Below the pieces are notes generated by a model. The model was not told the DNA's origin. It ran no database searches and saw only the letters and a program-made list of their open reading frames with translations. A DNA stretch of 64,000 bases from Fidelibacterota bacterium (lineage in GTDB: Bacteria > Fidelibacterota > UBA2242), in NCBI GenBank assembly GCA_049975265.1, contig JBNGDF010000012.1, positions 1,513 through 65,512 of the forward strand, written 5' to 3'. How positions within the stretch are numbered: the stretch's first letter is position 1; the number at the start of each line of letters is the position of its first letter. Made by a program: the position numbers and the translations under genes. Positions 542-18,732 of this stretch are shown in pieces.

Positions 542-3500
542 ATGACTGCTCCCCAAAATCTACCCTCTTTTGACCCTGCCCGTGAAGACGGTAATGCAGT
601 CCTGGAGATCATTCCGGATGCTGCTCTCATCATCGGTATCGACGGGAATATCCTGCACTGCAACCAGCGCTTTGAATCACTTACCGGTTACCGGCGATCC
701 GATCTGACCGATTTGCCCCTGGCAGATATTCCGCTGTTTTCCTGCAAAGACCGTCCGATTGTCCTGAAGATGTTCCGGGAGGTGCTGAAAGCAGAACGGG
801 AAGAGACTCTCCGGCTGGACTGGCATCCCCGGGAAGGTTTGCCCTCTACCGGGGAAGTGCAGCTTCGACCCTTCCGGAAAAACGGCGCGGCTACCGCCGT
901 TTTCCTGTTTATAAGGGACCTGAGCATTCCGCCATCAGCCCTGGAGACATTGCAAAAGACCACGACGGATTATCGGCAGATATTTGAAAATATGCGCGAC
1001 GGTTGGGTCATCACCGATCTGAAGAGTGTTATCCGGGAGGTGAACCCTGCTTTCGCCGAAATGACCGGCTATACCCGGACCCAGCTGATGGGTAAAAAAC
1101 TGACTGACATCACCCTCTCCAAATGGCACAAATTTGTAAAGTACGCTGTCGAAGAAGAAGCTCTGATTCACGGTCGCTCCGGAATTTATTACAAAGAAAT
1201 CAGCCGCAAAGACGGATCGGTTCTACCGGTAGAATCCGTCATATTTCTGGAAAGAGATCGCCATAACAGACCCAGAGGCATGTGGAACATGATCAGGGAT
1301 ATTACCGATCGGAAAAACGCCCAGGAGGCGGTGGCGGTCAGCGATTACCTGTACCGCCTGACCCTTTCCAATATCTCGGAAACCGTGTTCGTTACCGACG
1401 ATGCCGGCGACTTCACTTTCATCTGTCCCAGTACGGAAAAGATCTTTGGCTATCCGAAAGATGAGATCGCTGCCCTGGAAAATGTCAGCAATCTGTTCGG
1501 TCGTCAAATCTTCGATCCGGTAAAGCTGCGTTCCGCCGGCGAACTGGTTAACATTGAGCAGCGGATCGGGGATAAATTCGGGCGCCAGCACGACCTGCTG
1601 GTTTCCGTCAAGGCGGTGGTAATCGGTAAAGGGACGACACTCTATACCTGCCGCGATATCACCGACCGGAAAAGGATCGACCGGCTGTGGGCGCTTCATC
1701 GCGAAATCCTTGAAGAGGTAGCCCGGGGTTTATCACCGGGGAAACTGTTTGACCGGATCACAATGAGGATCGATGAGCTGCTGCCCGCCGCGCATTCTGC
1801 CCTTTTTCTTATGATGCCGGACAATCAACATCTTCATCTTGTTTCCGGTCCGCATATTCCGGATAAATGGAAAGAGCGGATGAAAATTCTCAGAATCCAT
1901 AAGGATCATACCTCCTGCACCGCGGCGGTCCAAAGAGCCGAAGCGATATTTGTCAGTGACATTTCAAAAAGTGATCTCTGGAAAAACAGCCGTACCGCTG
2001 CCCGCAAGGCGGGTATCCGCGCCAGCTGGTCACAGCCCATTCTGGCGTCTGATCAAAAACATGTTCAGGGGGTGCTTTCTCTTTACTTTGGTGCCGTTCA
2101 CCAGCCCGATGAATACGAAGGTCAGTTGCTGAAAACGCTGACCGAACTGATTGCGCTGGTGCTTGAGCATCGTCAGAACCAGGAAAAGGTGCAGACGGAA
2201 CGGGAACGACTCTATCAGGTTTTGGACATACTGCCGGGAAGTGTCTGTCTTTTTGGAACCGATCATAAAATCGCCTTTGCCAACCAGCACTTCCGGGATC
2301 AATACGGTTCGGATTTCAGCAAGCCCTGTTTTGAAATTATGCACGCCAAAAGCCAGCCCTGTGCCGACTGCCCCACTTTCCAGGTCTTTGAAACCGGCAA
2401 ATCCCGCATCTATGAGTGGACGCTGAACAATGGTGCCACCTGTCTGGTGCACGATCTGCCCTTCACCGACATCGACGGTTCTCCGCTGGTGCTGGAGTAC
2501 AGCCTGGATATCAGCGACCGGATCAATATGGAGAAATCGCTGCGTGCCAGCGAGGAACAGTTTCGCCTGATCTGGGAAAAATCACCTCTAGGATTGCGAT
2601 TGACGGATGCAGACGGTCAAATTGTCCGGGTCAATGGAGCCTATTGCAAAATGGTCAAAAAAAGCGCCGGTCAGCTCGAAGGACAACCGCTCTCCTGTGT
2701 CTATGAAAAATCCCGGCAGAACCATATTCTCGAAAGCCATCGTCGCCGCTTCAACGGCAGGACCGTTAAACGACACTTTGAAACTGAACTCACCCTTTGG
2801 GACGGTTCCAGGATTTGGCAACGCGTCTCCAACGCCTACTTTCAGTACGGTGATCCGCCCCGGGAACTGCTGCTGGGTATTTTTCAGGACATCAGCGAAC
2901 GTAAAAAAGCCGAGAATATATTGCAGAAAAGCGAAGAACGCTACCGCGCTTTTATTAACGCCACCCGGGATATGGTCTTTATCAAGGATGATGCCTTTCG
3001 CTATGTGGTGGTCAATCGCGCCAACCAGGAGTTTTTCGGAAAACCGGAGGAGGAGATTCTTGGCAAAACCGACTTTGATCTGATGTCGCCCGGGGCTGCC
3101 CGGCGCTGCCGCGAGACCGACAAACAGGCACTGCAATCTGATAACATCGTCAATAGTATTGAAAAAGTAAACGGGAGAATGTACGAAACCCGCAAATTTA
3201 TGGTGCCCATTGGCGACCGCAAAGGGGTTGGTGGCTTTATCCGGGATATTACAGAAAGACGGATCGCCGAAGAAAATCTGCAGTTTCAGGCGATGCTGCT
3301 GGATCGGATTCAAGACGGTATTGTTGCCACCGACCTGGAGGGCAATATTACCTATGCCAATGCGACAGAATTGGAGATTCTGGGAAAATCCCTGGATCAG
3401 GTGGTCGGGACCTCGGTCAGGTCCTTCGGTGGCGATCCCCGGCGGGGCGCCACCCAGGAGGAGATTATTGCCGAAACTCTGAAAAAGGGTTACTGGCGCG

Positions 3501-4327
3501 GCGAAGTCGCTAATTATCTGCCGGATGGGAAGCCGATTGTTTGGGACAGCCGGGTGCAGCTGATCCGGGACGGGGAAAACCGTCCGCAGGGAATGGTTGG
3601 CATCAGCACCAACATCACCGAGCGCAAAGAATTTATCAGTAAGCTGGAAAAATCCGAAAAGAGTCTGCGGGCGCTCGCCGGGCACCTGCAAAATATCCGT
3701 GAAGGTGAACGGGTTGCCATCGCCCGGGAAATCCATGATGAAATTGCCCAGATTTTCACCGCCCTGAAAATTGACCTGTCTATCCTGGAGTCCGATCTCG
3801 GGATTCATGTTCCGGATGTTCTCGAAAAATATGCCACTGACTTTACCGGAATGAAGGAGATGCTTGATGCGGGTATCGGGAAAATCCGCAGCCTGATCCG
3901 TCGCCTGAGACCCGAAAAGCTGGAAAATATGGGGCTCATTGAGGCTATCCGGTCACAGCTGGAAGAGGTCCGTCAGTCCGGCGGTCAGAAGACCACCTTT
4001 CATTCCGACCTTAACCACATTCATCTGAATAACGAACAACGGCTGGCTTTTTACCGCATCTTTCAAGAAGCGCTGACCAATATCAGTCGCCATGCCGAAG
4101 CCGACCACATCGCTGTTTCAATCAACCGAAAAAAGGAACGCGTTGTTATGACAATCCGGGACAACGGCATCGGCATTGACCCGGTGCACATGAAAAAACC
4201 GGAAAGCTATGGCATCATCGGAATGCGCGAACGGGCGATTTTTCTGGGTGGAACACTTACCATTAAGGGGCAGCCCGGCGCCGGAACCGAAGTCGTTCTG
4301 GAGATTCCGGAGGACCATGAGGAATGA
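542..4327 (+). CDS. multi-PAS/GAF sensor histidine kinase (HisKA_3 + HATPase_c)
   Basis: 1261-aa ORF with several PAS-like repeats and a GAF-like segment. The C-terminal ERVAIAREIHDEIAQ H-box is HisKA_3 type. GIGIDP...GMRERA...GG.L.I....G.GT is an ATPase G-box. Confidence 0.85.
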   Translation: MTAPQNLPSFDPAREDGNAVLEIIPDAALIIGIDGNILHCNQRFESLTGYRRSDLTDLPLADIPLFSCKDRPIVLKMFREVLKAEREETLRLDWHPREGLPSTGEVQLRPFRKNGAATAVFLFIRDLSIPPSALETLQKTTTDYRQIFENMRDGWVITDLKSVIREVNPAFAEMTGYTRTQLMGKKLTDITLSKWHKFVKYAVEEEALIHGRSGIYYKEISRKDGSVLPVESVIFLERDRHNRPRGMWNMIRDITDRKNAQEAVAVSDYLYRLTLSNISETVFVTDDAGDFTFICPSTEKIFGYPKDEIAALENVSNLFGRQIFDPVKLRSAGELVNIEQRIGDKFGRQHDLLVSVKAVVIGKGTTLYTCRDITDRKRIDRLWALHREILEEVARGLSPGKLFDRITMRIDELLPAAHSALFLMMPDNQHLHLVSGPHIPDKWKERMKILRIHKDHTSCTAAVQRAEAIFVSDISKSDLWKNSRTAARKAGIRASWSQPILASDQKHVQGVLSLYFGAVHQPDEYEGQLLKTLTELIALVLEHRQNQEKVQTERERLYQVLDILPGSVCLFGTDHKIAFANQHFRDQYGSDFSKPCFEIMHAKSQPCADCPTFQVFETGKSRIYEWTLNNGATCLVHDLPFTDIDGSPLVLEYSLDISDRINMEKSLRASEEQFRLIWEKSPLGLRLTDADGQIVRVNGAYCKMVKKSAGQLEGQPLSCVYEKSRQNHILESHRRRFNGRTVKRHFETELTLWDGSRIWQRVSNAYFQYGDPPRELLLGIFQDISERKKAENILQKSEERYRAFINATRDMVFIKDDAFRYVVVNRANQEFFGKPEEEILGKTDFDLMSPGAARRCRETDKQALQSDNIVNSIEKVNGRMYETRKFMVPIGDRKGVGGFIRDITERRIAEENLQFQAMLLDRIQDGIVATDLEGNITYANATELEILGKSLDQVVGTSVRSFGGDPRRGATQEEIIAETLKKGYWRGEVANYLPDGKPIVWDSRVQLIRDGENRPQGMVGISTNITERKEFISKLEKSEKSLRALAGHLQNIREGERVAIAREIHDEIAQIFTALKIDLSILESDLGIHVPDVLEKYATDFTGMKEMLDAGIGKIRSLIRRLRPEKLENMGLIEAIRSQLEEVRQSGGQKTTFHSDLNHIHLNNEQRLAFYRIFQEALTNISRHAEADHIAVSINRKKERVVMTIRDNGIGIDPVHMKKPESYGIIGMRERAIFLGGTLTIKGQPGAGTEVVLEIPEDHEE

Positions 4328-4376
4328 AAAAATCCCTGTTATTTTTCACATATTTCTTTTATAACTTCCAACTACA

Positions 4377-5018: not shown

Positions 5019-6305
5019 TTACGAAGAGATACTTTTTATGATATTAAAAAATTCCGGAAACGAGATTCCCACGCAGTCGGCGTCCCGAATCACCGATTCG
5101 CCGTCCGCAATAGAGGCGGCTACCGAAAGTGCCATGGCAATCCGGTGATCGTCGTAACTGCGGCATTCCGCACCGTACAGTTTCGTCGGTCCCTCTACGA
5201 TAAAGCCGTCCTCGGTCTCTTCAATTGCTGCCCCCATCTTTTTCAACTCACTGACAATCGCCGCAATCCGGTCGCTCTCCTTGATCCGCAGTTCCAGAGC
5301 ATCGCGGACAATCGTTTGTCCCTGAGCCTGGGTCGCCAGGACAGCAATAAGCGGCAGCTCGTCGATCAGTTTCGGGATCAGGCTGCCGCCTATTTCAACG
5401 GCTTTCAGCGGTGCCGACACAACCCGGATATCCGCCAGCGGTTCATTGGCAACCAGCCGCTCATTTATGAGCTCCGGCGCCGCGCCCATCTGCCTGAGGA
5501 CGGACAGCAACCCGGTGCGCGTCGAATTGATGCCCACATCGTGCAGGGTCAAGCGGCTGTCGGGAACGAGGAGCCCCAGCGCCAGCATAAACGCGGCTGA
5601 TGAAATGTCCCCGGGAACCTGAAAATTCCGCGCCGCCGGCTGACGATTTTTTCCGAGAGTGATGACGGCGCCCTTCCGTTGAACCTCCACGCCGCAAAAT
5701 GTCAGCATTCGTTCTGTATGATCGCGGCTTCTGACCGGTTCGATGACCTGCACGGCTCCGCCGGCATAGAGACCAGCCAGCAGGACCGCCGATTTGACCT
5801 GGGAGCTGGCGACCGGCAATTCATAGCTCACGTCGGATAATTCCGTTCCCCGGATAAAAAGGGGGGCGAACCGGTTCGTCCGGCGCCCGTAAATTTCGGC
5901 ACCGTTCTGCGTCAGCGGCTTGATAATGCGGTCCATGGGGCGCCGCCGCAAGCTGGCATCACCGGTCAGGATGGTCGCAAAATTCTGACCCGCCAACAGA
6001 CCGCAGAGCAGCCGCATCGTCGTTCCGGAGTTGCCGCAATCCAGAACATCCTCGGGTTCGCGGAGCGACCACTGCCCCTTTCCGTGGATTTCAATTTCGG
6101 AACCGCGGTGGCGAATATCCGCTCCCAGGGATTGCATACAGTTCAGAGTGGAACGGCAGTCAATCGCCGATGAGTAGTTCCGAATGCGGCTGATTCCGTT
6201 GCCGATTGATGCCAGCATTGCCGCCCGGTGTGAGATTGACTTATCGCCCGGAATGGTGACGTCGCCACGCAGGCGGGTGATGTGCGACAGAGAGATATCC
6301 GCCAC
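5019..6305 (-). CDS. aroA: 3-phosphoshikimate 1-carboxyvinyltransferase (EPSP synthase)
   Basis: 428 aa with KSISHRAAMLASIGNG and LDCGNSGTTMRLL motifs. Last gene of the minus-strand aro operon. Confidence 0.9.
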   Translation of the reverse strand: MADISLSHITRLRGDVTIPGDKSISHRAAMLASIGNGISRIRNYSSAIDCRSTLNCMQSLGADIRHRGSEIEIHGKGQWSLREPEDVLDCGNSGTTMRLLCGLLAGQNFATILTGDASLRRRPMDRIIKPLTQNGAEIYGRRTNRFAPLFIRGTELSDVSYELPVASSQVKSAVLLAGLYAGGAVQVIEPVRSRDHTERMLTFCGVEVQRKGAVITLGKNRQPAARNFQVPGDISSAAFMLALGLLVPDSRLTLHDVGINSTRTGLLSVLRQMGAAPELINERLVANEPLADIRVVSAPLKAVEIGGSLIPKLIDELPLIAVLATQAQGQTIVRDALELRIKESDRIAAIVSELKKMGAAIEETEDGFIVEGPTKLYGAECRSYDDHRIAMALSVAASIADGESVIRDADCVGISFPEFFNIIKSISS

Positions 6306-7319
6306 CTAAATACTCCGCCCGACGGCTTTAGCGACCTTTTCCAGCTCCTTCATCAGCTGTGCAAAATGCTCGAAAGTAATCGATTGATAGCCGTCAGAAA
6401 GCGCCTTATCGGGAAAAGGGTGGACCTCAATCATGACGCCGTCCGCACCGGCGGCGATGGCGGCTTTGGACAGGGGGATAATCATATCCCGGCGACCGGA
6501 AGCGTGACTGGGGTCCACCAGAACCGGCAGATGAGACTGCTGTTTCAGTTCCGGAATACTGCTGATATCCAGCGTAAAACGGGTATAGTCGTTAAATGTC
6601 CGGATGCCCCGCTCACACAGCACGACGTTGTAATTTCCGCCGGACATGATGTATTCCGCTGCCAGCAGAAATTCGCTGATCGTAGCGGAAATACCGCGCT
6701 TAAGCAGAATCGGTTTTTTGCAGTGCCCTGCCCGCTTCAGCAGCGAGTAGTTCTGCATGTTGCGCGCTCCGATCTGAACCATATCCACATATTCTTCCAC
6801 CAGATCAAAGCTCTCCGTATCAACGGCTTCGGAGACTACCGGAATGTCAATGAGCTCCCGGGCATCCGCCAGGATTTCAAGCCCCCGTTTTCCCAAACCC
6901 TGGAAGGAGTAGGGTGAGGTGCGTGGTTTGTAGGCGCCGCCTCGCATCAGATCGGCGCCGAGCATTTTCAACAGGCGTCCGCCTTCATTGGTGCCTTCTA
7001 CAGTTTCAACGGCGCAGGAGCCGGCAATGATTGTCAGCTTTTTCCCGCCGATGGCGACCTTTCCGACCTTTACAACCGTATCTTTGGCTTTCATCTCACG
7101 GCTGCCCAGCTTGTAAGGCTTTTTTACATCATCAATATTCTTGACGCCGGGCATTTTGGCGATTTGCTCCCGATCCAGTCCGGCGTGATCACCGGTCACT
7201 CCCATGGTGCCGGTGGAACCCTTGGGAAGATTATGCACATCACCCCCCATTTTTTTTATCAATTCGGTAACCCGTCTGATCTCCTTTTTTGTTGCCGAAT
7301 CGTCCATTGTAATAACCAT
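6306..7319 (-). CDS. 3-deoxy-7-phosphoheptulonate (DAHP) synthase, class I-beta with N-terminal regulatory domain
   Basis: 337 aa with a KDO8PS/DAHPS-like TIM barrel ([11 protein letters not shown]..., GARNMQN, LKRG). The roughly 70-aa N-terminal extension is typical of Tyr/Phe-regulated Thermotoga-type DAHPS. Its stop abuts the aroA start. Confidence 0.8.
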
Positions 7320-7334
7320 TTTAATATTTCTCCT

Positions 7335-7772
7335 CTACAAAGCACTTATGTTGCGAATAAAATATTCTATAGCCAGAATATATCCGAGATACCCCAGCCC
7401 GCTGATTTGACCCCGGCATACCGGCGCAATCAGCGAGGTCTGCCGGAAATGTTCCCGGGCGTGAATGTTGCTCAGATGGACCTCGATCACCGGAACAGCG
7501 ACCGCTTCCACGGCATCCCGAATCGCTACGGAGCTGTGTGTAAAACCACCGGGATTTAAAACAATCCCGGTCAGCCCTCCTGATTGCTGAATGGCGTCGA
7601 TAATGTCGCCTTCATGGTTACTCTGGACTATGTCCACCGTTACATTTTTGGATTTCGCAAAGGTTGTAATTTTTGCGTTGATCTCGTCCAGGGTCTGCAC
7701 GCCGTAATGCTCCGGCTTGCGCTGCCCCAGCAGATTCAAATTTGGTCCATGAATGACACGAAATTCTGCCAT
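7335..7772 (-). CDS. aroQ: 3-dehydroquinate dehydratase, type II
   Basis: 145 aa. The N-terminus VIHGPNLNLLGQRKPEHYG is the type II DHQase signature. Confidence 0.9.
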   Translation of the reverse strand: MAEFRVIHGPNLNLLGQRKPEHYGVQTLDEINAKITTFAKSKNVTVDIVQSNHEGDIIDAIQQSGGLTGIVLNPGGFTHSSVAIRDAVEAVAVPVIEVHLSNIHAREHFRQTSLIAPVCRGQISGLGYLGYILAIEYFIRNISAL

Positions 7773-9349
7773 GTCAACTCCTTTATGCTACTCTTTCCAA
7801 TGGACGTTAAAACGGGAATTTTCAGCCTCCCGTCCGCCAATTTTTTATCCTGAAGTAAATGCTCCCGCAGTTTCCCGGTCTCAAGCCCTGGTGGCAGGGT
7901 TACCGGCAGCCGGTAACGCCGGATCGTACGGACAATCCGATCGATATCATTCTCCGGCAAGCCGGATATCCGGCGGGCGATCTGTGCCTCCAGCACCATC
8001 CCGGTGGCTACCGCCTCACCGTGCCTGATGCCCCGGTAATGACGACCGGCTTCGATCATATGACCGACGGTGTGTCCGAAATTCAGCAGCGAGCGAAGTC
8101 CGGAAATCTCCCTTTCGTCTGCCCTGACGATGTTTCGCTTAATCTCGACACACCGGTAGACAATGAACCCCAACAGCTCGTTATCGCGCGCCAGCACCGC
8201 CCCGGAATTTTTCTCCAGCAGATCAAACAGTTCACTGTCCCGAATCAGAGCGGCTTTAATCACCTCTGCCAGACCGTTGCGGTATTCCCGTCCGGATAAT
8301 GTTTTCAGCAGTTCAATATCCGCCAGCACTAATTCCGGCTGATAAAAACTGCCGATCAGATTTTTCCCGGCGGGATGATTGACACCGGTCTTGCCGCCCA
8401 CGCTGGCGTCTACCTGTGCCAGCAACGTCGTGGGAATGTGTATCAGCCGGCAACCCCGCTTCAGCGTCGCCGCCACAAATCCGGATATGTCGGTCACCAC
8501 GCCGCCGCCCAGCCCGATGATCAGGTCGCTGCGGTCGAACTGATGTTCCAGAAGGGCGTCGTAGATTTTTACCACTGTCTTCAGTGACTTGAAGCGCTCA
8601 CCGTCAGGAATTACAACGGGTAGAACGGAAATATCCATCGCCGCCAGCAGACTGGTGAACCGGTTTAGCCACAGCGCGCCCACCAGCGGATTGGTGATGA
8701 CCGCACAGCGGCGGGGAACTTTCCGCAACAGCCGGGGCAGCGTCTCCAGAATGCCGGTGCCGATCCGGACGGGGTATTCACCACCTGCCGTTGTTACCGG
8801 TACGGTGATGGTTTTGATCGCTTTGGCTTTTTCGTAGAAATCTTCAATGCGAATTTCAGGATGCGTTTCCCGCAGGATTCTTTCGGCAATCTCCGCTGGT
8901 GACAGGTCATCGGTGGCGATGGTGATTTTTGCTAAGTCGTACATCCCGCGGCGCTCCGCCAATAAATTTTCAACAGCCCCCGGTTGTCTCAGCAAAGGGC
9001 GGGTTTCATCACCCGCCAGACGCTTTTTTACCGTCCCGGCGGTCACTTTCAAATGCACGACAGTTCCCAGTCGCGCCAGACGTTTTTGGTTCAGCGGCTC
9101 TTTGACGATGCCGCCGCCGGTCGCCAGCACGATATTTTGCAGGCCGCGGAGGGAGCGGAGCATTCTGGATTCCAGACGCCGGAAGTAGCTCTCGCCGCTC
9201 TCTTCAAAAATAGCGCTGATGCTGCGCTTTTCCGCCAGTTCGATCATCCGGTCGGTGGACAGAAAGCGCAGACCGCTACGCCGGGCGATTTCACGCCCTA
9301 CGCTGTCCTTACCGCTGCCCATGAATCCGATCAGGATCAAATTTTGCAT
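7736..9349 (-). CDS. aroKB: bifunctional shikimate kinase / 3-dehydroquinate synthase (AroK-AroB fusion)
   Basis: N-terminal P-loop LILIGFMGSGKDSVGREIA (shikimate kinase). The C-terminal 370 aa carry DHQ synthase motifs (GGGVVTDISGFVAAT..., DASVGGKTG). Overlaps aroQ by 37 nt. Confidence 0.85.
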   Translation of the reverse strand: MQNLILIGFMGSGKDSVGREIARRSGLRFLSTDRMIELAEKRSISAIFEESGESYFRRLESRMLRSLRGLQNIVLATGGGIVKEPLNQKRLARLGTVVHLKVTAGTVKKRLAGDETRPLLRQPGAVENLLAERRGMYDLAKITIATDDLSPAEIAERILRETHPEIRIEDFYEKAKAIKTITVPVTTAGGEYPVRIGTGILETLPRLLRKVPRRCAVITNPLVGALWLNRFTSLLAAMDISVLPVVIPDGERFKSLKTVVKIYDALLEHQFDRSDLIIGLGGGVVTDISGFVAATLKRGCRLIHIPTTLLAQVDASVGGKTGVNHPAGKNLIGSFYQPELVLADIELLKTLSGREYRNGLAEVIKAALIRDSELFDLLEKNSGAVLARDNELLGFIVYRCVEIKRNIVRADEREISGLRSLLNFGHTVGHMIEAGRHYRGIRHGEAVATGMVLEAQIARRISGLPENDIDRIVRTIRRYRLPVTLPPGLETGKLREHLLQDKKLADGRLKIPVLTSIGKSSIKELTWQNFVSFMDQI

Positions 9350-10476
9350 ATTCGTTCCCGGTATTGTCGAAAATTGGCTTTGATATCTTCTAAACTGTCA
9401 CCGCCGAACTTTTTCACCACGTCATCGGCGAGCGTCAGCGCCAGCATGGCTTCGCCCACGACGCCGGCTGCCGGCACAACGCAGACATCCGCCCGCTCTT
9501 TTTGAGCTGCCACCGCCCTGCCGGTGTGGATATCGGCGGATTGCAATGGCGTCCGCAGTGACGGCAGCGGCTTGATTTGCATGTATACGACAACATCTTC
9601 GCCGTTGGTCATGCCGCCCTCGATACCGCCAGCGTGATTGGTCTTGCGGAAAAATCTGCTCTTTTTTTGAAAGTAAATCTCATCCTGTGCCGCCGAGCCC
9701 GGTTTGTTGGCGATATCACGGTCGCCGATAATTACCCCTTTGACTGACGGAATAGACATCAGCGCCGCGGCAATTTTGGCGTCCAGACGCTCATCCCACC
9801 GGGTGTATGTGCCCAGCCCGGGGCAGACCCCTGCGGCGCGGATTTCCGCCACACCGCCCAAGGTATCGCCCTTTTTCGCCGCTGCATCAATCCGCTCCAG
9901 CATGCGCTGCTCCTGCAGCGGGTCGGCGCAGCGCAGCGGGGATGTTTCTGTTTCTTCCGCTGTCCGCGTTCTCTGGTCAATTTCAATATCGGCGATGGCG
10001 ATTGTCTGCGACGATAAATGAATTCCAAATTCCCGGAGAAAAAGTTTCATCAGCGCGCCAGCAGCCACCCGTGCGGCGGTCTCCCGGGCGCTGGCGCGCT
10101 CCAGAACATTGCGCACGTCCCGAAAACCGAATTTCTGTACACCCGCCAGATCAGCGTGCCCGGGACGCGGCGCGGTCACCGGTTCGTCAACGGTCAGTTT
10201 TTCCACATTCATCCGCCCCTGCCAGTTGGCATAATCCCGGTTTTGGATCCAGAGGGCAATGGGTGACCCGAGCGTTTGACCGTCACGGACACCGGATAAA
10301 ATTTCCACCTCGTCGGCTTCGATCTGCATCCGTCCGCCGCGACCGTAGCCCTGCTGCCGCCTCCGGAGTTCGGCATTGATAAAGGCAATATCCACCGGCA
10401 GTCCCGCCGGAAAGCCGTCAATAATGACGCTCAGCCCTTTTCCGTGCGATTCTCCGGCGCTGATCATTTTAATCAT
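9337..10476 (-). CDS. aroC: chorismate synthase
   Basis: 379 aa with GESHGKGLSVIIDGFPAGLP and RRRQQGYGRGGRM motifs. Confidence 0.9.
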   Translation of the reverse strand: MIKMISAGESHGKGLSVIIDGFPAGLPVDIAFINAELRRRQQGYGRGGRMQIEADEVEILSGVRDGQTLGSPIALWIQNRDYANWQGRMNVEKLTVDEPVTAPRPGHADLAGVQKFGFRDVRNVLERASARETAARVAAGALMKLFLREFGIHLSSQTIAIADIEIDQRTRTAEETETSPLRCADPLQEQRMLERIDAAAKKGDTLGGVAEIRAAGVCPGLGTYTRWDERLDAKIAAALMSIPSVKGVIIGDRDIANKPGSAAQDEIYFQKKSRFFRKTNHAGGIEGGMTNGEDVVVYMQIKPLPSLRTPLQSADIHTGRAVAAQKERADVCVVPAAGVVGEAMLALTLADDVVKKFGGDSLEDIKANFRQYRERICKI

Positions 10477-11248
10477 GATTCATTCCTAACGCTTTTTGCA
10501 TGACACCCACCGGCGCTTTTTCACCGGTAAAAATCTCAAAGGCTTTGACGCCCTGATAGAGCAGCATTTCCAGTCCGTTTACGCAGCGAATTTCGCCGCA
10601 CTGCCGTAGGGAAAATTTGTAATTCAGGTCCAGATACAACGAACCCCTTTGCATGAAAGGGGTTACGTCGTCCTGAAAATCAACCGGGCTGGCATTGATC
10701 ACCATAGCAGTGTTATTGAGAGTGGTCTGAAGAGCATCGGTGGCGATGACCGTCGCCGTCTTGTAGTGCGACGCCAGCGCCTCCGCCTTGGACCTTTCAA
10801 TGTCATGGAGATACAGTCGTTCGGGCTGGTACTGATTCAGCACCCAGGCGGCGGCTTTCGCTACTCCGCCGGCGCCGATCATGAGCACTTTTTTGCCACG
10901 CAGATCGATCCTGGTGTGTTCCAGCAAAATCCGGAAACCGTAGATGTCGGTATTGTATCCGGAGAGACCATCCTCATCGAAGACGACCGTGTTGACGGCA
11001 CCCACCTCCTGCGCTTCTTTAGCTATGCGATTGAGAAAGAGCAATACCGTTTCTTTGTGTGGGTTTGTAACGTTTACTCCCCTGCAGCCGATTACCCGGA
11101 GGGCGTCCAGGACGTCCTTCAGCCGGGTCGGTTCCACAGGTATCCGGAGATAGGCGCCGTCAATTTTTTTCGCCTGAAATGCCGCATTATGCATGCGGGG
11201 CGAATAGGTCGTTTCCAGCGGATAGCCGATAATGCCGGTAATCAGCAC
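10469..11248 (-). CDS. aroE: shikimate dehydrogenase
   Basis: 259 aa. GIIGYPLETTYSPRMHNAAF..., NVTNPHK, and the NADP fold GAGGVAKAAA. Confidence 0.85.
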   Translation of the reverse strand: MLITGIIGYPLETTYSPRMHNAAFQAKKIDGAYLRIPVEPTRLKDVLDALRVIGCRGVNVTNPHKETVLLFLNRIAKEAQEVGAVNTVVFDEDGLSGYNTDIYGFRILLEHTRIDLRGKKVLMIGAGGVAKAAAWVLNQYQPERLYLHDIERSKAEALASHYKTATVIATDALQTTLNNTAMVINASPVDFQDDVTPFMQRGSLYLDLNYKFSLRQCGEIRCVNGLEMLLYQGVKAFEIFTGEKAPVGVMQKALGMNHD

Positions 11249-11251
11249 ACT

Positions 11252-12367
11252 CTACTCCTTTCCTGAAATTTCCTCTCTGTTTAACCACTCCTTTGACCTG
11301 CACATGCTCTGAACGAAACGCTCCGGTTGATCGTTCATAACACAATCTATAAGAGCTGTCATAGCCTGTTGCATCTGCTCGTAAAGCTCTTTTTTAAAGG
11401 GATTATATTTCTGAATTAAATAATAGAGCTCCGGGTTTTCATTGATTACACTGGAAGCCGTCGCCATTTGCGAGAGAAAGGTGGTGCTGGCAATGTCGCG
11501 CATCTCGCTGTAGCGGAATCCGCTCCCCGCCAGAATTTTCATATAGATAATATTGCTGATATGCGAGAGCCCCAGCACGTAGGAAATCGCCCGGTCATGG
11601 GTGTCCAGCGCCAGGTCGACACTTCGGGCGGCGGTGTCTCTGAAAAAGGCTTTCGCCCGGTTCAGCGCTTCCGAACTGCCGCAATTGCAGTAGCAGACCA
11701 CCTTGTCCGAAAGGGTGCGCACACTCGGTCCGAACATGGGGTGAATACTGGTAATCAGGAGTCCCCGCTGCCGGGCTCGTTCGATCGCCTCCCGCAGATG
11801 ACCCTTGATGCTGGCGATGTCGAATACCAGCCCCCGGAAATTCAGGTCTGCGATCCGCATGATCATTTCGGGCACCGCATCCAGCGATACGGCAATCACG
11901 GTGCAGCTGGCGCGCGCCAGCCCCTCTTCCAGCGTCGCCACCGCCTTAAATCCCGGTGCCGTCTCCACGATATCATAGACCAGTACCTCGTGTCCCTGGG
12001 TCTCAAAAAAAGAGGCGAGCCAGTGCCCCATTTCACCGGCACCGCCTACAATCAGGATGGTTTCCTTGTCACCGCTGTAGGCGCTGTAATGCTGCCGTTC
12101 CTGTTGCGTCCGGGACTCGCCGATCAGCAGCTGCATGACCGCTTTGACAAAATCCGGCGACAGATTCAAGTCCCGGGCAACCGCCCCGGCATTTTCCATG
12201 ACCGCTTTTTCCACCTGGTAGTTCAGGAGCGGTAGACCGGCGGCTTTTTTAATCTGCCCGATGGTATGAGTCAGTTCGAGACGCCTGCCCACCAGCCGGA
12301 TAATCTCCCGGTCCACCCGGCGCACTTCGTCGCGCATCTCTTCCAGTTTTTCCATAACCTCTTTCAC
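11252..12367 (-). CDS. tyrA: bifunctional chorismate mutase / prephenate dehydrogenase (T-protein)
   Basis: The N-terminal 90 aa form an AroQ-class chorismate mutase helix bundle (LEEMRDEVRRVDREIIRLVGRRLEL...). The remainder has a Rossmann fold (ILIVGGAGEMGHW) and a prephenate dehydrogenase domain. RBS AAGAGG. Confidence 0.8.
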   Translation of the reverse strand: MKEVMEKLEEMRDEVRRVDREIIRLVGRRLELTHTIGQIKKAAGLPLLNYQVEKAVMENAGAVARDLNLSPDFVKAVMQLLIGESRTQQERQHYSAYSGDKETILIVGGAGEMGHWLASFFETQGHEVLVYDIVETAPGFKAVATLEEGLARASCTVIAVSLDAVPEMIMRIADLNFRGLVFDIASIKGHLREAIERARQRGLLITSIHPMFGPSVRTLSDKVVCYCNCGSSEALNRAKAFFRDTAARSVDLALDTHDRAISYVLGLSHISNIIYMKILAGSGFRYSEMRDIASTTFLSQMATASSVINENPELYYLIQKYNPFKKELYEQMQQAMTALIDCVMNDQPERFVQSMCRSKEWLNREEISGKE

Positions 12368-12382
12368 TTGTCATTAAAACCA

Positions 12383-12415
12383 AAACGCGGGTCTTTTCAG
12401 GCCCGCGGTTTTTAT
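12383..12415 (-). terminator. attenuator terminator hairpin upstream of tyrA (CGCGGG-loop-CCCGCG + U4GGU4)
   Basis: Minus strand reads AAAAACCGCGGGCCUGAAAAGACCCGCGUUUUGGUUUU. It sits 16 nt upstream of the tyrA RBS. An upstream GGUCCGCGG inside the leader ORF can pair with the 5' arm in a 9-bp antiterminator. Confidence 0.55.
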
Positions 12416-12431
12416 TCTTTTTCTGATTTGC

Positions 12432-12530
12432 TTAATGGTTTCGAATCCGCGGACCTGGCTCAATTTGCCCATTAAAATAGTAATATGTGGTGTAATTCAG
12501 AGGCATATTGAGCAGTTCACGCTTCATCAT
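12432..12530 (-). CDS. Tyr-rich leader peptide (32 aa, MMKRELLNMPLNYTTYYYFNGQIEPGPRIRNH) of tyrA-aro operon attenuator
   Basis: Not in the ORF track. Minus-strand ORF ATGATG...TAA has 4 Tyr codons plus 1 Phe codon in 7 consecutive positions. It ends 17 nt before a terminator hairpin that lies just upstream of tyrA. A TTTACA-17-TATATT promoter is directly upstream. Confidence 0.55.
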   Translation of the reverse strand: MMKRELLNMPLNYTTYYYFNGQIEPGPRIRNH

Positions 12531-12687
12531 GCACCAAATATAGGATTGAAAATCCTTAGTGTAAAGAAAATTTTTTCAAGGAGCCGTTTTTTTACACCGG
12601 GATAATTATTACTCCCCGGATGCCCGAAACAGTAACCGGATGGAGTCCGGCTGCGATGCTACTGACCACAGCCGGACTTTCCGGATG

Positions 12688-14055
12688 CTATTTCCCATTT
12701 AGCGGCAGATGATCGAGAGCCGCCCGGATTTTCTCTTCGGGATATTCGTAATCCTCCAGTTTTCCGGACAGGTAGGCGTCGTAAGCCGCCATGTCCACAT
12801 GCCCGTGACCGCTCAAGCCGATCAGGATCGTCTTCGACTCGCCAGCCTCTTTACATTTCAGCGCCTCATCAATGGCGACCCGCACGGCATGGTCGGTTTC
12901 CGGTGCGCAGATGATCCCTTCGTTGCGGGCAAACTGCAGCCCGGCTTCGAAGGTTCCCAGCTGGTGCACCGCGGTGGCTTCCACCAGCCCCAGCTTATGC
13001 AGATGCGTCACAATCGGCGCCATGCCGTGATAGCGCAACCCACCCGCATGTACCGGCGGCGGCATGAATTCATGTCCCAGGGTGAACATTTTCAGCAGCG
13101 GTGTCATACCGGCTTCGTCACCGTAGTCATAAGCGTATAATCCCTTGGTCAGCGTCGGGCAGCTGGTGGGTTCCACATTGATAATCCGCAGGTCCGGTTT
13201 CTTACCGTCCAGTTTGTCCTTTAAAAAGGGCAGATAGAGTCCTGCGGCATTGGAGCCGCCGCCCACGCAGCCGACGATGATATCGGGGTAATCACCGATA
13301 TCTTCCATCATGGTTTTGGTTTCCTGCCCTATAATCGTCTGGTGCAGCAGCACGTGATTCAGCACGCTGCCCAGTGAGTAATGGGTGTCATCCCGGGAAA
13401 CCGCGTCCTCCACCGCCTCGCTGATTGCCAGACCGAGACTGCCGGGGCAATCCGGGTCCTCTGCCAGGATTTTCCGTCCCACCGCCGTTTCATCACTGGG
13501 GCTGGGTATGCAATTGCCGCCCCAGGTCTCCATCATGATACGACGATAGGGCTTCTGGTAAAAGCTGCATTTGACCATATAGACTTTGATTTCCAGCCCG
13601 AACAGCGCTCCGCCAAAGGATAGCGCGCTGCCCCACTGACCGGCGCCGGTCTCGGTGGTGATCCGCTTGATGCCCTCTTTTTTATTGTAATATGCCTGAG
13701 CGACGGCGGTGTTGGGCTTGTGGCTGCCGGGCGGGCTGGTGCCTTCGTACTTGTAATAGATTTTTGCCGGGGTGTCCAGAGCCTTTTCCAGACGCCGGGC
13801 GCGGTAGAGTATCGTCGGACGCCATAGCCTGAATATATCCTGCAGCTCTTCGGGAATCTCAATATAGCGCTCGGAACTCATCTCCTGCCTGATCAGCTCC
13901 ATGGGAAAGAGCGGTGCCAGATCTTCAGGTCCCAGTGGCTGTTTGGTGCCCGGATGCAGTGGCGGCGGCAGCGGCGCCGGCAGGTCTGGCAACACATTAT
14001 ACCAGTGTGTCGGCATTCGTTTTTCGTCCAAAATGTACTTCGTCTGTTCCATCAT
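12688..14055 (-). CDS. trpB: tryptophan synthase beta chain, TrpB2 type
   Basis: 455 aa PLP enzyme with the N-terminal extension typical of TrpB2 ([10 protein letters not shown]..., [16 protein letters not shown]). RBS GGAG. Confidence 0.85.
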
Positions 14056-14097: not shown

Positions 14098-14132
14098 ATA
14101 ACAAAAATCGCGGGCTTTTTCAGGTCCGCGAT
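14098..14132 (-). terminator. attenuator terminator hairpin in trpB leader (AUCGCGG-loop-CCGCGAU + U5GUU)
   Basis: Minus strand reads AUCGCGGACCUGAAAAAGCCCGCGAUUUUUGUUAUAU, about 45 nt upstream of the trpB start. Near-identical to the tyrA-leader hairpin. Upstream CAGGU...CGAUC can form an alternative antiterminator. Confidence 0.5.
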
Positions 14133-14155
14133 CTATTTTGCTATGGTTTTTTGAC

Positions 14156-14248
14156 TTACTGTCGATGCCCGATCGGCAAACCTGAAAAGATATCTGCCTG
14201 GTGCCACCACCAGTTCCAGGTATTGTTTATTGTCAGGTTCGCTCGCAT
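14156..14248 (-). CDS. Trp-rich leader peptide (30 aa, MRANLTINNTWNWWWHQADIFSGLPIGHRQ) of trpB attenuator
   Basis: Not in the ORF track. Minus-strand ORF with four TGG codons in five consecutive positions (W-N-W-W-W). The stop is followed 25 nt later by a terminator hairpin, then trpB. CCUGG...CCAGG flanks the Trp codons. Confidence 0.55.
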   Translation of the reverse strand: MRANLTINNTWNWWWHQADIFSGLPIGHRQ

Positions 14249-14302
14249 CGGCAGTTAATATAAACCGAAAATCCAAAAACACAAAAGAAAATTTCTTTTT
14301 CA

Positions 14303-14494: not shown

Positions 14495-16543
14495 ATGAAA
14501 AGAACCACGTACATACTATTGGTAGCCGGACTGCTCATCGCAGTGAGCGGGATGGTGATGGGGCAGACAGAGTTGCTGGAAAATGGAGGTTTTGAATCCT
14601 GGGATGACACTTCAACACCAGCTGGCTGGGATCACATTGAAAGTATCACACAAGAAGCAACTGAAGTCAGATCTGGTTCTTATTCGGCAAAGCATGTAGG
14701 AGGAACCAAAGATTTAGGCCAATATATTGCTGTTACTGGAGGAAAATCATATACTGTTACTCTTTGGTATAAGGTAACTGCAGGCGATGGTACTGACGCA
14801 AGAATTTGGTCATATTGGAGAAGTAGCGGTTCTAATCTGGATGATAATGCTAGTGAATTAAGAGGTCCAAATAATTCATATTTTGATAACAATGGTGGTG
14901 TCTGGACACAGTATACCGTTACATTGGATGCTCCGCTTTCCGCGGATGAATTTTATTTTGAGGTTAGAACATATTCTGGTGCTACTGTTTACTGGGATGA
15001 TTTTTCGTTTCTTGAAAATTCAGTATCTTCGGATCCAGAACCAACAAATCATGTCAGCAGCTTTTCAGCAAGTCTAAATGGCTATAGTGCCATTGACCTT
15101 ACCTGGTTAGATAACGATGGGACGGATGTTGCTTTAGGATTTTTAATATTGGCAAACACAAGTGGTTCTTTTACTGATCCAGTTGATGGAACACCTCAAG
15201 CAGATGACACCGATCTTAGCGACGGTTCCGGAGTAAAAAATATTGCCCATGGTGTTCAATCATATACATTTACCGGATTAACTGCAGAAACAACTTACTA
15301 TTTCAAAATTTATCCCTATAGCAATGTGAGTGAAAATATTAATTATAAAACGGAAGGGGATGTTCCAAGTGCAAGCGCCACAACTGAAACACTTCCCAAC
15401 GCCTGGATCAATGAGATCCATTATGATAATGATGGTAGCGATGTAAATGAGGGGGTTGAGATTATCATTGAAAATCCTGGTGATTACACGCTATCGTCTT
15501 TTACTGTCACATTATACAATGGAAATGGCGGAGCGTCTTATGGTTCAGAAACATTAGATAATTTTACCGTAGGAAACTCTCAAGGAGATTTTACAATTTA
15601 TTATAATACTTCAGCATGGGGAAGTGGAATTCAAAATGGAGCTCCAGATGGTCTTGCATTATCCTATCAGGGACATTTAATTCAATTCCTGAGTTATGAA
15701 GGTACATTTACTGCTACCGATGGTCCGGCTAATGGCATTACTTCAACTGATATAGGTGTCAGCCAAAGTGGATCTGATCCTGTTGGTGAAACTCTCCAAC
15801 TCATAGGCGGCGGTACACAATACTCAGATTTCACTTGGGGCAGTTCTACATACCCTGCAACCTGGGGCGCTCCGAATAATGATGGAAGTACCGATCAATC
15901 CCTCCCCGTCGAGCTGAATGGTTTCAATGCCGTTCCTGGCAACGGCGAGGTGACGCTCTCCTGGACCACCGAATCCGAGACGGAAAACCTGGGATTTATC
16001 ATTCAAAGGAGACAGGAAACAACCTGCCTGACTGCGCAGAGCGGTCAGGGAGAATGGAAACTGGTAGCGGACTATACGACCGATGAAACCTTAGCCGGGC
16101 AGGGCAGTACTTCCGAAGCCCATGAATATACATACACCGACGCGCAGGTTGTGCCGGGCGCAACTTATCTCTATCGCCTCGGCGATGTGGATTACAGCGG
16201 TAAGGTTACGTGGCATAAAGAGGTCGAGGTTAAGGTTGAGGTTGAGGATGAGCAGGTGCCAGTGGTTTTCAGCTTAAAACCGGCGTATCCGAATCCCTTT
16301 AATCCGGAAACCACGCTGCGCTTTCAGCTGGGCGAAGCCTCCCATGTTCGGGTTCAGGTGTATGATCTGCTGGGCAACCTGGTGACGACGCTGACCGATG
16401 GGCGCTATCAGGTCGGGCGCTACAACCTGCACTGGAACGGATGCGATGACCGGGGACGCCTGTCCTCCAGCGGAGTCTATTTCATTTATATCAGCAGCAG
16501 CACCGGTTTTACGAGTACGCAAAAGGTTGTCTTTCTGCGCTGA
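14495..16543 (+). CDS. secreted multidomain protein with T9SS C-terminal sorting domain (lamin-tail-like / FN3-like modules)
   Basis: Signal peptide MKRTTYILLVAGLLIAVSGMVMGQ. C-terminal PNPFNPETTLRFQL...VYFIYISS...VVFLR is a T9SS-type CTD. RBS GAGGGGGAG. The N-terminal two thirds are markedly lower in GC than the C-terminus. Confidence 0.7.
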   Translation: MKRTTYILLVAGLLIAVSGMVMGQTELLENGGFESWDDTSTPAGWDHIESITQEATEVRSGSYSAKHVGGTKDLGQYIAVTGGKSYTVTLWYKVTAGDGTDARIWSYWRSSGSNLDDNASELRGPNNSYFDNNGGVWTQYTVTLDAPLSADEFYFEVRTYSGATVYWDDFSFLENSVSSDPEPTNHVSSFSASLNGYSAIDLTWLDNDGTDVALGFLILANTSGSFTDPVDGTPQADDTDLSDGSGVKNIAHGVQSYTFTGLTAETTYYFKIYPYSNVSENINYKTEGDVPSASATTETLPNAWINEIHYDNDGSDVNEGVEIIIENPGDYTLSSFTVTLYNGNGGASYGSETLDNFTVGNSQGDFTIYYNTSAWGSGIQNGAPDGLALSYQGHLIQFLSYEGTFTATDGPANGITSTDIGVSQSGSDPVGETLQLIGGGTQYSDFTWGSSTYPATWGAPNNDGSTDQSLPVELNGFNAVPGNGEVTLSWTTESETENLGFIIQRRQETTCLTAQSGQGEWKLVADYTTDETLAGQGSTSEAHEYTYTDAQVVPGATYLYRLGDVDYSGKVTWHKEVEVKVEVEDEQVPVVFSLKPAYPNPFNPETTLRFQLGEASHVRVQVYDLLGNLVTTLTDGRYQVGRYNLHWNGCDDRGRLSSSGVYFIYISSSTGFTSTQKVVFLR

Positions 16544-16593
16544 TTATTACGCCCGTTAGTCCCCCGGATTTTCGGGGGTGACTATCCACAACG

Positions 16594-16622
16594 CCCCCGG
16601 CTACATCCGGGGGTATTTTTTA
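16594..16622 (+). terminator. rho-independent terminator
   Basis: CCCCCGGCTACATCCGGGGG hairpin followed by TATTTTTTAT. A second GC hairpin (16561-16578) precedes it. Confidence 0.65.
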
Positions 16623-16649
16623 TGATACTAATGATCGTTTGTCCCTGAT

Positions 16650-16790
16650 AACCTTCCGAAGGTTTTTACAAGAATTTTATACCAGTCTGAGCATCTCACT
16701 AAAACCTTCGGAAGGTTATAATAAGAATCCTGTTCTAGTCTGACCATTACACTAAAACCTTCGGAAGGTTTCCGTATCCTGTGACAAAAA
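16650..16790. repeat. three tandem ~53-bp direct repeats each headed by the palindrome AACCTTC(C/G)GAAGGTT
   Basis: Palindromes at 16650, 16703 and 16756 with exact 53-bp spacing. The units share AAGAAT...AGTCTGA...CAT..CACTAA. They lie upstream of the endonuclease I cargo gene. Confidence 0.55.
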
Positions 16791-16857
16791 TCGTTTTATT
16801 CCAACAAAAATCGCCGTAAACTTCACTGTTGACATCTAAGAATATCCAAAGGGACTC

Positions 16858-18732
16858 ATGTCTATTAAAAAATTCCTCTCACTCAGCATCGGCATTCTGC
16901 TGCTTTTTACAATTGCCGCCGAGGCGCAGATACCCGACGGTTACTACGACGCCGCCGACGGCAAAACCGGCTCAGAGCTGAAGGCGGCGCTGAACACCAT
17001 CGTAAACACGGGCTTGAATCGAGTTTCCTATGGCGATTCCAGAAATATCCTGGATAAAACCGATCAAGACCCGGATAATCTTGATAATATCATTTTAGTA
17101 TACCGGGGAACTTCCGTAAGTGGCGACTGGGACGAGGGAACAACATGGAATCGCGAACATGTCTGGCCACAGTCTTTGCTCGGATTAGAAGATTTAAGGA
17201 ATACAGATAAAAATGTCGGAACCGATCTTCATAATTTAAAACCCGCCAATCCCAGCGAAAACAGCAGTCGGAGTAATAAATATTATGACAATCAAACCAC
17301 ATCTGCCAGCTATGCTCCAAGAGATGCCGTAAAAGGCGATCTTGCCAGAATTTTATTTTACATGGTTATTGCTTACGAAACATATCCTCTGGATCTGGAA
17401 CTTGTCAATCACGAACCAAATCTATATCAAATGGCGATGCTTGATGTTCTACTTGAATGGCATGAACAGGACCCTGTGGATTCTTTTGAGGAAAACAGAA
17501 ACGAAATTATCTATAGTTATCAGCACAACCGCAATCCCTTCATTGATCATCCCGAATATGTCGCCCTGATCTGGTCCGAAAATCCACCGCCGCAGCCGCC
17601 ATCCGACCTGGTTGCACTGGATGCTGCGCAAACCTCGCTGCTACTCCGCTGGACCGACAACTCCGCCGAGGAGAATGGCTTTATTATCTATCAGAACAGT
17701 GTCAGGATCGACAGCGTCGCCGCCGATTCCACCAGCTACCAGGTGATAAATCTGCTGCCCGGCACCCTCTACTGCTTCGCCGTCACCGCCTATAATAATT
17801 ACGGCGAATCCGCCGCCGCCGTTCTGGAAGTCACTACCCTGCCCGGCGATTCGAGCCAGACGACCCCCGATTCACTCTTTTTCTCCGAATATATCGAGGG
17901 CAACGGTTTCAATAAAGCCTTGGAAATTTATAACGCATCCGGTCGTTCTGTAAACCTCTCCGGCTATTCCATTCTGGCTAATTCCAACAACAGTCCCTGG
18001 TACCAGACTCATTACAGCTTTCCCGCCGGGGCGGTCCTGGAACCCGGCTCCGTCTGGGTCATCATGAACTCCGGTTTCGATTCGACGTATCACTCAGTCG
18101 CCGACGAGCTGACTTCCGCCACCGTTGTTAATTTCAACGGCAATGATGTCCGCGCTTTGGTAAAATTCAATGCCGCCGATACGACCTTCCTTGATGTGAT
18201 CGGCGTCTATGGCGATACCGCTGAAGTCGCCGCCTGGTCGGTCGCCGGAATCACCGGTGCCACCGAGAATCATACCCTGGTTCGCAAACCATCGGTCAAG
18301 TGTGGCAATCCCGACTGGTACAGCAGCGCCGGAACGGATTCCCTTGATTCCGAATGGCTTGTCTATGCCGGCGACACCTTCGATTTCCTCGGCTATCATA
18401 CTGTTGATACGGTCAGCGCTATCGATATTTGTAATGTGGCGCCTGCCGTCGAATATTTTCGGCTCTACAGCTGCTACCCCAATCCCTTTAACCCCACGAC
18501 GAAAATCCGCTATGATCTCGAAACGATCGCTACCGTGACGCTGCAGATTTTCGATCTGCGCGGAGTCCTGGTCAAGACCCTTGTCCACACCCGGCAGCAA
18601 CCGGGACACTACCGGGTAGCCTGGGACGCCCGGGATCAGCAGCAGCGCAGCGTTCCGGCGGGTGTCTATCTCTACCGGTTGCAGACCGCCGACGGCTTTG
18701 GGCAGACCGGCAAAATGATGTACCTGAAATAA
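16858..18732 (+). CDS. secreted endonuclease I (EndA/Vvn family) fused to FN3, lamin-tail-like and T9SS C-terminal domains
   Basis: Signal peptide. REHVWPQS...NRNPFIDHPEY are endonuclease I motifs. An FN3-like segment (LRWTDNSAEENGFIIYQN) follows. C-terminal YPNPFNPTTKIRYDL...YLYRL is a T9SS CTD. Confidence 0.75.
   Translation: MSIKKFLSLSIGILLLFTIAAEAQIPDGYYDAADGKTGSELKAALNTIVNTGLNRVSYGDSRNILDKTDQDPDNLDNIILVYRGTSVSGDWDEGTTWNREHVWPQSLLGLEDLRNTDKNVGTDLHNLKPANPSENSSRSNKYYDNQTTSASYAPRDAVKGDLARILFYMVIAYETYPLDLELVNHEPNLYQMAMLDVLLEWHEQDPVDSFEENRNEIIYSYQHNRNPFIDHPEYVALIWSENPPPQPPSDLVALDAAQTSLLLRWTDNSAEENGFIIYQNSVRIDSVAADSTSYQVINLLPGTLYCFAVTAYNNYGESAAAVLEVTTLPGDSSQTTPDSLFFSEYIEGNGFNKALEIYNASGRSVNLSGYSILANSNNSPWYQTHYSFPAGAVLEPGSVWVIMNSGFDSTYHSVADELTSATVVNFNGNDVRALVKFNAADTTFLDVIGVYGDTAEVAAWSVAGITGATENHTLVRKPSVKCGNPDWYSSAGTDSLDSEWLVYAGDTFDFLGYHTVDTVSAIDICNVAPAVEYFRLYSCYPNPFNPTTKIRYDLETIATVTLQIFDLRGVLVKTLVHTRQQPGHYRVAWDARDQQQRSVPAGVYLYRLQTADGFGQTGKMMYLK

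Follow-up and report, generated by a model that had tools for sequence, protein, structure and literature searches.

A putative Tyr/Phe-codon leader-peptide attenuator upstream of tyrA and the shikimate-pathway operon in Marinimicrobia, and its Trp-codon sibling

Described attenuators and the tyrA locus

In E. coli, tyrA is under the control of the TyrR repressor, and T-box riboswitches are found at tyrS and aromatic operons in Firmicutes. The leader that precedes the tyrA gene studied here resembles most closely the pheL-pheA leader of E. coli and the trpL/hisL class, with which it shares a short open reading frame (ORF) rich in codons for the products of the pathway, and alternative helices (1:2, 2:3 and 3:4) ending in an intrinsic terminator. 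As in pheL-pheA, the first gene encodes a chorismate-mutase fusion enzyme. Unlike in that system, however, the regulated gene is the prephenate dehydrogenase (tyrA) fusion, and the signal is Tyr plus Phe instead of the long Phe run of pheL. In further contrast to pheL, trpL and hisL, the ORF has no Shine-Dalgarno sequence, is predicted to start at the 5' end of the transcript and contains region 2 of the switch; unlike in the E. coli trp system, a leader RNA left untranslated is predicted to read through. With T-box riboswitches, the mechanism proposed below has in common the sensing of tRNA charging, the switch between antiterminator and terminator, and family growth by duplication with a change of the specifier codon, but the tyrA leader contains no T-box fold or sequence and its sensing would go through the translating ribosome.

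Leaders with mixed aromatic codons have a precedent in aroR, upstream of aroF in C. glutamicum, which is described as carrying Phe-Tyr-Phe codons and acting by ribosome stalling on a shikimate-pathway operon (PMC11802643). According to the same source, aroR responds to Phe and not to Tyr (Neshat et al. 2014, as cited in PMC11802643). The two leaders are likened here by description and are presumably unrelated in sequence; aroR precedes DAHP synthase instead of tyrA and belongs to another phylum. A second likeness is to the mycobacterial polycysteine ORFs, described as leaderless upstream ORFs that attenuate the expression of operonic genes in Actinobacteria (bioRxiv 10.1101/834739). There too, by that description, an ORF at the 5' end of the transcript tunes the downstream operon through its cognate codons; the comparison is again one of description, and the leaderless status of the tyrA leader is read from the spacing between its -10 box and AUG.

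The window, which is the whole 64,000-nt stretch of DNA analyzed, contains the following genes around the leader.

14055..12688, minus strand: gene for a TrpB-like PLP enzyme, followed by a 320-nt spacer before the tyrA operon
11252..12365, minus strand: tyrA with its ribosome-binding site (RBS; GAAAGAGG, 12365-12358; ATG at 12355), first gene of the regulated operon
5019..11248, minus strand: the remaining operon, comprising aroE, aroC, an aroK-aroB fusion, aroQ, DAHP synthase and aroA

The genes tyrA-aroE-aroC-aroKB-aroQ-DAHPS-aroA provide the complete shikimate pathway and the Tyr branch, and their order is the same in the relatives. Because the operon holds the whole pathway together with tyrA, Phe as well as Tyr would be a logical signal. 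TyrA is the fused chorismate mutase/prephenate dehydrogenase named in the initial annotation of this DNA, with Pfam CM_2, PDH_N and PDH_C all above their cut-offs; its best NCBIfam match was the bifunctional chorismate mutase/prephenate dehydrogenase model, at a score below the equivalog cut-off. The DNA of the window belongs to a Candidatus Neomarinimicrobiota genome, from an organism represented by metagenome bins only. The nearest genome record by TyrA is a bin of this group (93% identity); exact-protein look-ups with the TyrA of the window and with the Trp leader peptide described below returned no record. No further promoter-like site was found in the interval between the leader terminator and tyrA, so that the operon must be transcribed through the terminator.

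Directly 3' of the stop codon of the TrpB-like gene lies a 9-bp hairpin (GUCCGGCUG...CAGCCGGAC, 12640-12685, minus strand) that does not have a clean U-tract, and similar hairpins follow the TrpB-like gene in loci L004, L010 and L012. It is probably this gene's own terminator, in which case the tyrA leader would be a separate transcription unit.

None of the Rfam leader families (Phe_leader, Trp_leader and others) matched positions 11800-13200 at E <= 10, and none scored above its gathering score in a scan of the whole window; T-box and other known RNA families were ruled out on the same search of 11800-13200. The sole Rfam match above the gathering score in the whole window was a tRNA gene (43507-43580, minus strand). 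Judged by its sequence features, conservation, pairing potential and geometry, the tyrA leader is very likely (with a probability of roughly 0.85) a ribosome-mediated leader-peptide transcription attenuator that controls tyrA and the shikimate operon by sensing charged tRNA-Tyr and tRNA-Phe.

The leader ORF and its promoter across relatives

Reading the minus strand from the TrpB-like gene towards tyrA, the first parts of the leader are a promoter and a short ORF.

12537..12565, minus strand: putative promoter, with the -35 box TTTACA at 12565-12560, a 17-nt spacer and the -10 box TATATT at 12542-12537 (10 of 12 matches)
12432..12530, minus strand: leader ORF, 32 codons in length or 31 if counted from the conserved ATG-AAG at 12527, product MMKRELLNMPLNYTTYYYFNGQIEPGPRIRNH
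12474..12494, minus strand: regulatory codon block UAC ACC ACA UAU UAC UAU UUU (Y T T Y Y Y F)

Both had been noticed in the initial annotation, and both are as claimed there: the promoter hexamers are in place, and positions 12530..12432 translate exactly into a 32-codon ORF with Tyr at four of six codons followed by Phe. The Tyr codons are at 12494-12492 and 12485-12477 and the Phe codon is at 12476-12474. Among the 427 ATG ORFs of 15-60 codons in the 64-kb window, this is the only one with at least four Tyr in six codons. Since shuffled windows still gave a mean of 0.24 such ORFs, the Tyr run alone is only mildly significant, and it is conservation that carries the case.

Relatives were collected by TyrA alignment against one genome per species, by a metagenome scan with a strict DNA pattern, which gave nine further true copies, all nine before tyrA, and by exact-protein look-ups. 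Together these yielded 19 distinct leader versions, each immediately upstream of tyrA, with TyrA identities of 63-93%. Among the TyrA relatives of 55% identity or less, nhmmer detected no copy of the element in any locus, and in almost every case tyrA lies directly against its upstream neighbour or overlaps it, so that there is no space for a leader; this indicates that the element is clade-specific. These distant relatives were WOR-3, Planctomycetota and bins labelled Gemmatimonadota; in loci L015-L031, L033, L035 and L040 the distance between tyrA and the upstream gene was -13 to +6 nt, with no leader region.

Conservation sets in abruptly at the A-rich stretch (~12578-12571 in the window) and the -35 box and ends at the U-tract, the sequence further upstream not being alignable between loci. 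In all 19 tyr-type elements, and also in the 12 trp-type elements presented below, both promoter hexamers are conserved and the spacer between them varies, which is the pattern expected of a promoter and is consistent with the TTTACA-17-TATATT match being one; it is the sole promoter-like match on the minus strand within 11800-13200. The distance from the -10 box to the AUG is 5-9 nt in 19/19 tyr-type and 8 nt in 12/12 trp-type elements, and in the window A12530 is the seventh nucleotide past the -10 box. Because this is too near for a ribosome-binding site, the leader ORF is probably leaderless, or close to it, and most likely read from a 5'-terminal AUG; whereas tyrA has the RBS GAAAGAGG, the leader ORF has no room for a Shine-Dalgarno sequence.

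In every one of the 19 leaders the frame is open over 27-31 codons starting at the conserved ATG-AAG. Internal stops were absent from this frame but numbered 45 and 38 in the other two, and the three indel events within the ORF (3, 6 and 3 nt) were all in-frame, while those downstream of the stop codon measured 1-4 nt. As in other leader-peptide attenuators, then, a short ORF kept open by selection separates the putative promoter from the first structural gene. The rates of substitution by codon position (0.28/0.33/0.34) showed no third-position excess, so the coding case rests on frame maintenance and not on dN/dS, and selection would act on the openness of the frame, on a few codons and on the RNA, but not on the entire peptide. 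The ORF has been annotated as a gene once, on a Logan contig, and there too it is upstream of tyrA.

The codons themselves required one correction to the initial annotation, which had described a Tyr-codon attenuator. Tyr is part of the signal, but not Tyr alone: the last two codons of the block, UAU-UUU (12479-12474), are invariant in the tyr-type family as part of a core UAU-UUU-nnn-GGG (Tyr-Phe-x-Gly, 19/19), which forms the cluster of end-product-cognate codons typical of such leaders. Counts per leader were 2-6 for Tyr, 1-4 for Phe and 3-8 for both together among 27-31 codons (n = 19), and the Trp codon was absent from all 19. Four Tyr in a run are confined to the window and L001, its closest relative, and the signal is thinnest in some relatives with Y..YF, i.e. 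two Tyr and one Phe. The comparative search for Tyr-rich ORFs before tyrA, suggested together with that first reading, is what the 19 distinct leaders answer, and the pattern then named as contrary to it, a hairpin kept while the Tyr codons are not, did not appear, every relative keeping Tyr-Phe at a fixed distance from the RNA switch.

Alternative helices and the proposed switch

Four segments and an accessory hairpin make up the RNA part of the leader.

12458..12513, minus strand: P1, a long-range hairpin (GCUCAAUAUGCCU, 12513-12501, with GGGCAAAUUGAGC, 12470-12458) enclosing the Tyr/Phe codons
12467..12471, minus strand: region 1, UGGGC, candidate anti-antiterminator, able to pair with GGUCCG (12454-12450) of region 2
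12443..12457, minus strand: region 2, 5' arm of the antiterminator, CAGGUCCGCGG plus AUUC, inside the ORF at the Gly-Pro-Arg-Ile codons
12398..12408, minus strand: region 3, CCGCGGGCCUG, shared as 3' arm of the antiterminator and 5' arm of the terminator
12376..12394, minus strand: region 4, AGACCCGCG (3' arm of the terminator) and the U-tract UUUUGGUUUU at 12385-12376

The GC hairpin with a U-tract before tyrA and the 9-bp pairing between the ORF and the terminator arm, both pointed out in the initial annotation, were confirmed. The predicted intrinsic terminator, situated past the ORF and ahead of tyrA, spans 12407..12376 (-15.5 kcal/mol for the isolated hairpin, z = -2.8) and has a 6-bp G+C stem, CGCGGG (12407-12402) with CCCGCG (12391-12386), topped by a C.A mismatch, two more pairs and a GAAA loop, and followed by the tail UUUUGGUUUU. 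The distances first given, 17 nt from the stop codon to the hairpin and 16 nt from the hairpin to the RBS, hold only if the A/U pairs on either side are included in the stem; with the G+C stem as the boundary, ~23 nt lie between the stop codon and the stem and ~20 nt between the stem and the GAAAGAGG RBS. A consensus terminator scanner calls this hairpin on the plus strand only, since the C.A mismatch becomes a G.T pair there. In the antiterminator, GGUCCGCGG (12455..12447) pairs with CCGCGGGCC (12408..12400), and ViennaRNA lengthened this helix to 11 bp (CAGGUCCGCGG/CCGCGGGCCUG, 12457-12447 with 12408-12398) within the minimum-energy fold (z = -3.5). As it takes up region 3, the antiterminator is mutually exclusive with the terminator.

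Region 1 had been overlooked, although the antiterminator and the terminator had not. It emerged from the RNAalifold consensus of the 19 sequences, which contained the terminator together with a 5-bp helix between YGGGY (region 1, 12471-12467) and GGYCCG (region 2). Helix conservation was expressed as the percentage of paired cells in the 19-sequence alignment and compared with slid controls: the 1:2 helix was paired in 100% of cells (controls 3-60%), the 2:3 antiterminator, 11-14 bp long, in 90.8% (controls 34-44%), and the 3:4 terminator in 96.9% (controls 31-60%). The columns of the helices are mostly invariant, with no double-sided change in the antiterminator within the tyr family, and covariation in this family is consequently weak. 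Such invariance is to be expected, given that each segment must fit two partners and that region 2 is also coding. P1 was set aside as support for the switch because its conservation is confined to the core (59.5% of cells paired, a few compensatory changes); it may be optional, acting as a pause hairpin.

The spacing of these parts agrees with what a ribosome on the ORF could do. In each of the 19 leaders, region 1 follows the Phe codon at a distance of 3 nt, and region 2 is followed by the stop codon at 5-8 nt. A ribosome held at the regulatory codons would thus mask region 1, and one at the stop codon would mask region 2 in part; a simulated footprint on the stop codon covered just 7-10 nt of this 15-nt region. 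The 1:2 helix, with its 5 bp, is weaker than the antiterminator, and untranslated leader RNA would be predicted to read through. The initial annotation had proposed folding the RNA for mutually exclusive structures, and the outcome depended on its length. In RNAs cut before region 4, the antiterminator formed in 18 of the 19, whether free or with a footprint on the Tyr/Phe codons, and was partly or wholly lost with the footprint on the stop codon. At equilibrium, full-length RNAs of most relatives preferred the terminator even with a "stalled" footprint. Equilibrium folding of the full-length RNA with ribosome footprints was accordingly rejected as a model of the switch, which must be kinetic.

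The steps of the proposed mechanism are predicted from sequence: where transcription starts, that the ORF is translated, that the hairpin terminates and that starvation is sensed. It would work as follows. Transcription would start at or next to the AUG, giving a leaderless mRNA, and a ribosome would translate the 31-32 codon ORF behind the advancing RNA polymerase. When Tyr and Phe are plentiful, the ribosome would reach the UAA stop codon and cover the 3' half of region 2, while region 1, freed behind it, could hold the 5' half; region 3 would then pair with region 4, and the hairpin and U-tract would halt transcription ~20 nt before tyrA. When Tyr or Phe is scarce, the ribosome would stall with UAU or UUU in its A site and its footprint over region 1. 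Region 2 would be free to pair with region 3 as soon as this is made (11-14 bp), the terminator could not form, and the polymerase would enter tyrA-aroE-aroC-aroKB-aroQ-DAHPS-aroA.

The Trp-codon sibling and the competing explanations

A joint nhmmer profile found exactly two copies of the element in the window, the second one being 1.7 kb upstream of the tyrA leader.

14100..14285, minus strand: sibling attenuator before the TrpB-like gene, with the same promoter layout
14262-14257, minus strand: -10 box TATATT of the sibling promoter (-35 box TTTGTG), then 8 nt to the ORF
14248..14156, minus strand: sibling ORF of 30 codons, MRANLTINNTWNWWWHQADIFSGLPIGHRQ (WNWWW)
14132..14107, minus strand: sibling terminator, followed by UUUUU and near-identical to that of the tyrA leader

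The sibling and the tyrA leader can be aligned, -35 box through U-tract, and match in region 2, but the columns that hold (L/Y)YF in the latter hold WWW (UGG UGG UGG) in the former. Trp-type elements with the WWW block before a TrpB-like gene were found in the window and as 11 other distinct elements from relatives; no third type was detected by the joint profile in ~100 fetched loci. Compensatory changes were seen both between the families, where one antiterminator pair is U-A in tyr and C-G in trp, and within the trp family, where one terminator pair is G-C in most and A-U in others. Both terminators also retain one mismatch in the upper stem (12392/12401 and 14125/14113, minus strand), C.A in 19/19 tyr-type and A.C in most trp-type elements. 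This mismatch, on account of which both are called on the opposite strand only, may tune the strength of the terminator against the antiterminator.

That the leaders of tyrA and of the TrpB-like gene are paralogues is well supported by their alignment. In all loci with both leaders (L001, L003/L089, L006, L008, L009 and L090) the trp-type is ~1.6-3.6 kb upstream of the tyr-type, a tandem order thus shared throughout the clade; in most of them the distance would accommodate a single TrpB-like gene, and the ~3.6 kb of L008 may include an extra gene. A codon block that tracks the downstream product in two homologues is predicted by ribosome-mediated attenuation and not by a ligand- or protein-binding RNA, and we regard this match, read from the two sequences, as the strongest evidence for such attenuation. 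With it, the stall-dependent logic of the initial annotation has gained independent support from the Trp paralogue, all of its elements being present and conserved in 19 distinct relatives. Whether the two leaders represent a clade-specific family of leaderless attenuators that was duplicated and re-targeted by exchange of codon blocks (YF <-> WWW) is more doubtful, and we offer it tentatively; in that case, other biosynthetic operons of the Marinimicrobia could be preceded by further siblings whose blocks encode His, Leu, Thr or another amino acid.

The same comparison bears on explanations in which the ORF would be incidental. A translation-independent RNA switch, be it a riboswitch, a T-box-like tRNA sensor or a protein-binding attenuator, would account for the lack of third-position excess and for helices and unpaired boxes (AGAAUA, AAAAGA) conserved beyond the needs of a simple terminator. 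It would not account for a frame open in 19/19 with in-frame indels only, nor would a ligand pocket have changed precisely the codon block to WWW before a Trp gene; with an element of only ~150 nt, devoid of specifier-loop or T-box sequence and of any Rfam match, T-box included, even at E <= 10, we consider such a switch highly improbable. It is also very unlikely that the nascent peptide (Y-F-x-G ... S-G-P/L-x-I) is the sensor and, like TnaC, arrests the ribosome on meeting a free amino acid or some other ligand, instead of reading tRNA charging through the Tyr/Phe codons. Invariant residues do occur (M, K, Y, F, G, P, I) and the C-terminal motif SG(P/L)xI is common to the tyr and trp siblings, but the invariant residues overlap nucleotides needed by regions 1 and 2 (GGG, GGUCCG, AUUC) and their codons show no synonymous variation; the RNA accounts for these positions, and a constraint on the peptide is not required. 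The match of the codon block to the downstream product in both siblings is, moreover, what sensing of tRNA charging predicts. The SG(P/L)xI peptide might nevertheless have a function of its own.

Since the element has its own promoter, ORF and terminator and was once annotated as a gene, it might also be an independent small-protein gene, with tyrA expressed by constitutive leak-through and no switch at all. We find this hard to credit in view of the conserved antiterminator that overlaps the terminator, the fixed spacings among codon block, region 1, region 2 and stop codon, the constant position immediately upstream of tyrA, the lack of another promoter for an operon of seven enzymes, and the existence of a sibling with cognate codons.

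Ribosome-mediated attenuation, the preferred reading, is a textbook mechanism; new in detail are the phylum, tyrA as the target and a pair of siblings that has been re-specified. The element would extend Yanofsky-type attenuation to the Marinimicrobia (SAR406), an abundant uncultured marine phylum for which leader peptides or attenuators were nowhere mentioned in the literature searched, and would provide a Tyr/Phe-codon leader that controls tyrA together with the complete shikimate pathway. Siblings that can be aligned and yet carry different codon blocks offer a clean natural experiment in which a leader-peptide attenuator was duplicated and re-specified. Both elements could join RNA-family databases and serve to annotate the regulation of aromatic amino acids in metagenome bins.

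Two other features of the window were recorded. A short ORF on the plus strand (MKKSLLFFTYFFYNFQLQ, 4324-4380) has at least five Tyr/Phe in seven codons; it sits between the gene of a large sensor kinase (542..4327) and that of a response regulator (4377..) and is probably due to chance. Two large secreted-looking proteins encoded at 14495-18732 (plus strand) have NPFNP...-type C-terminal tails, which we take to resemble type IX secretion sorting domains, and a neighbour gene in locus L095 gave a weak Por_Secre_tail match. Such type IX-like sorting tails fit a member of the FCB group.
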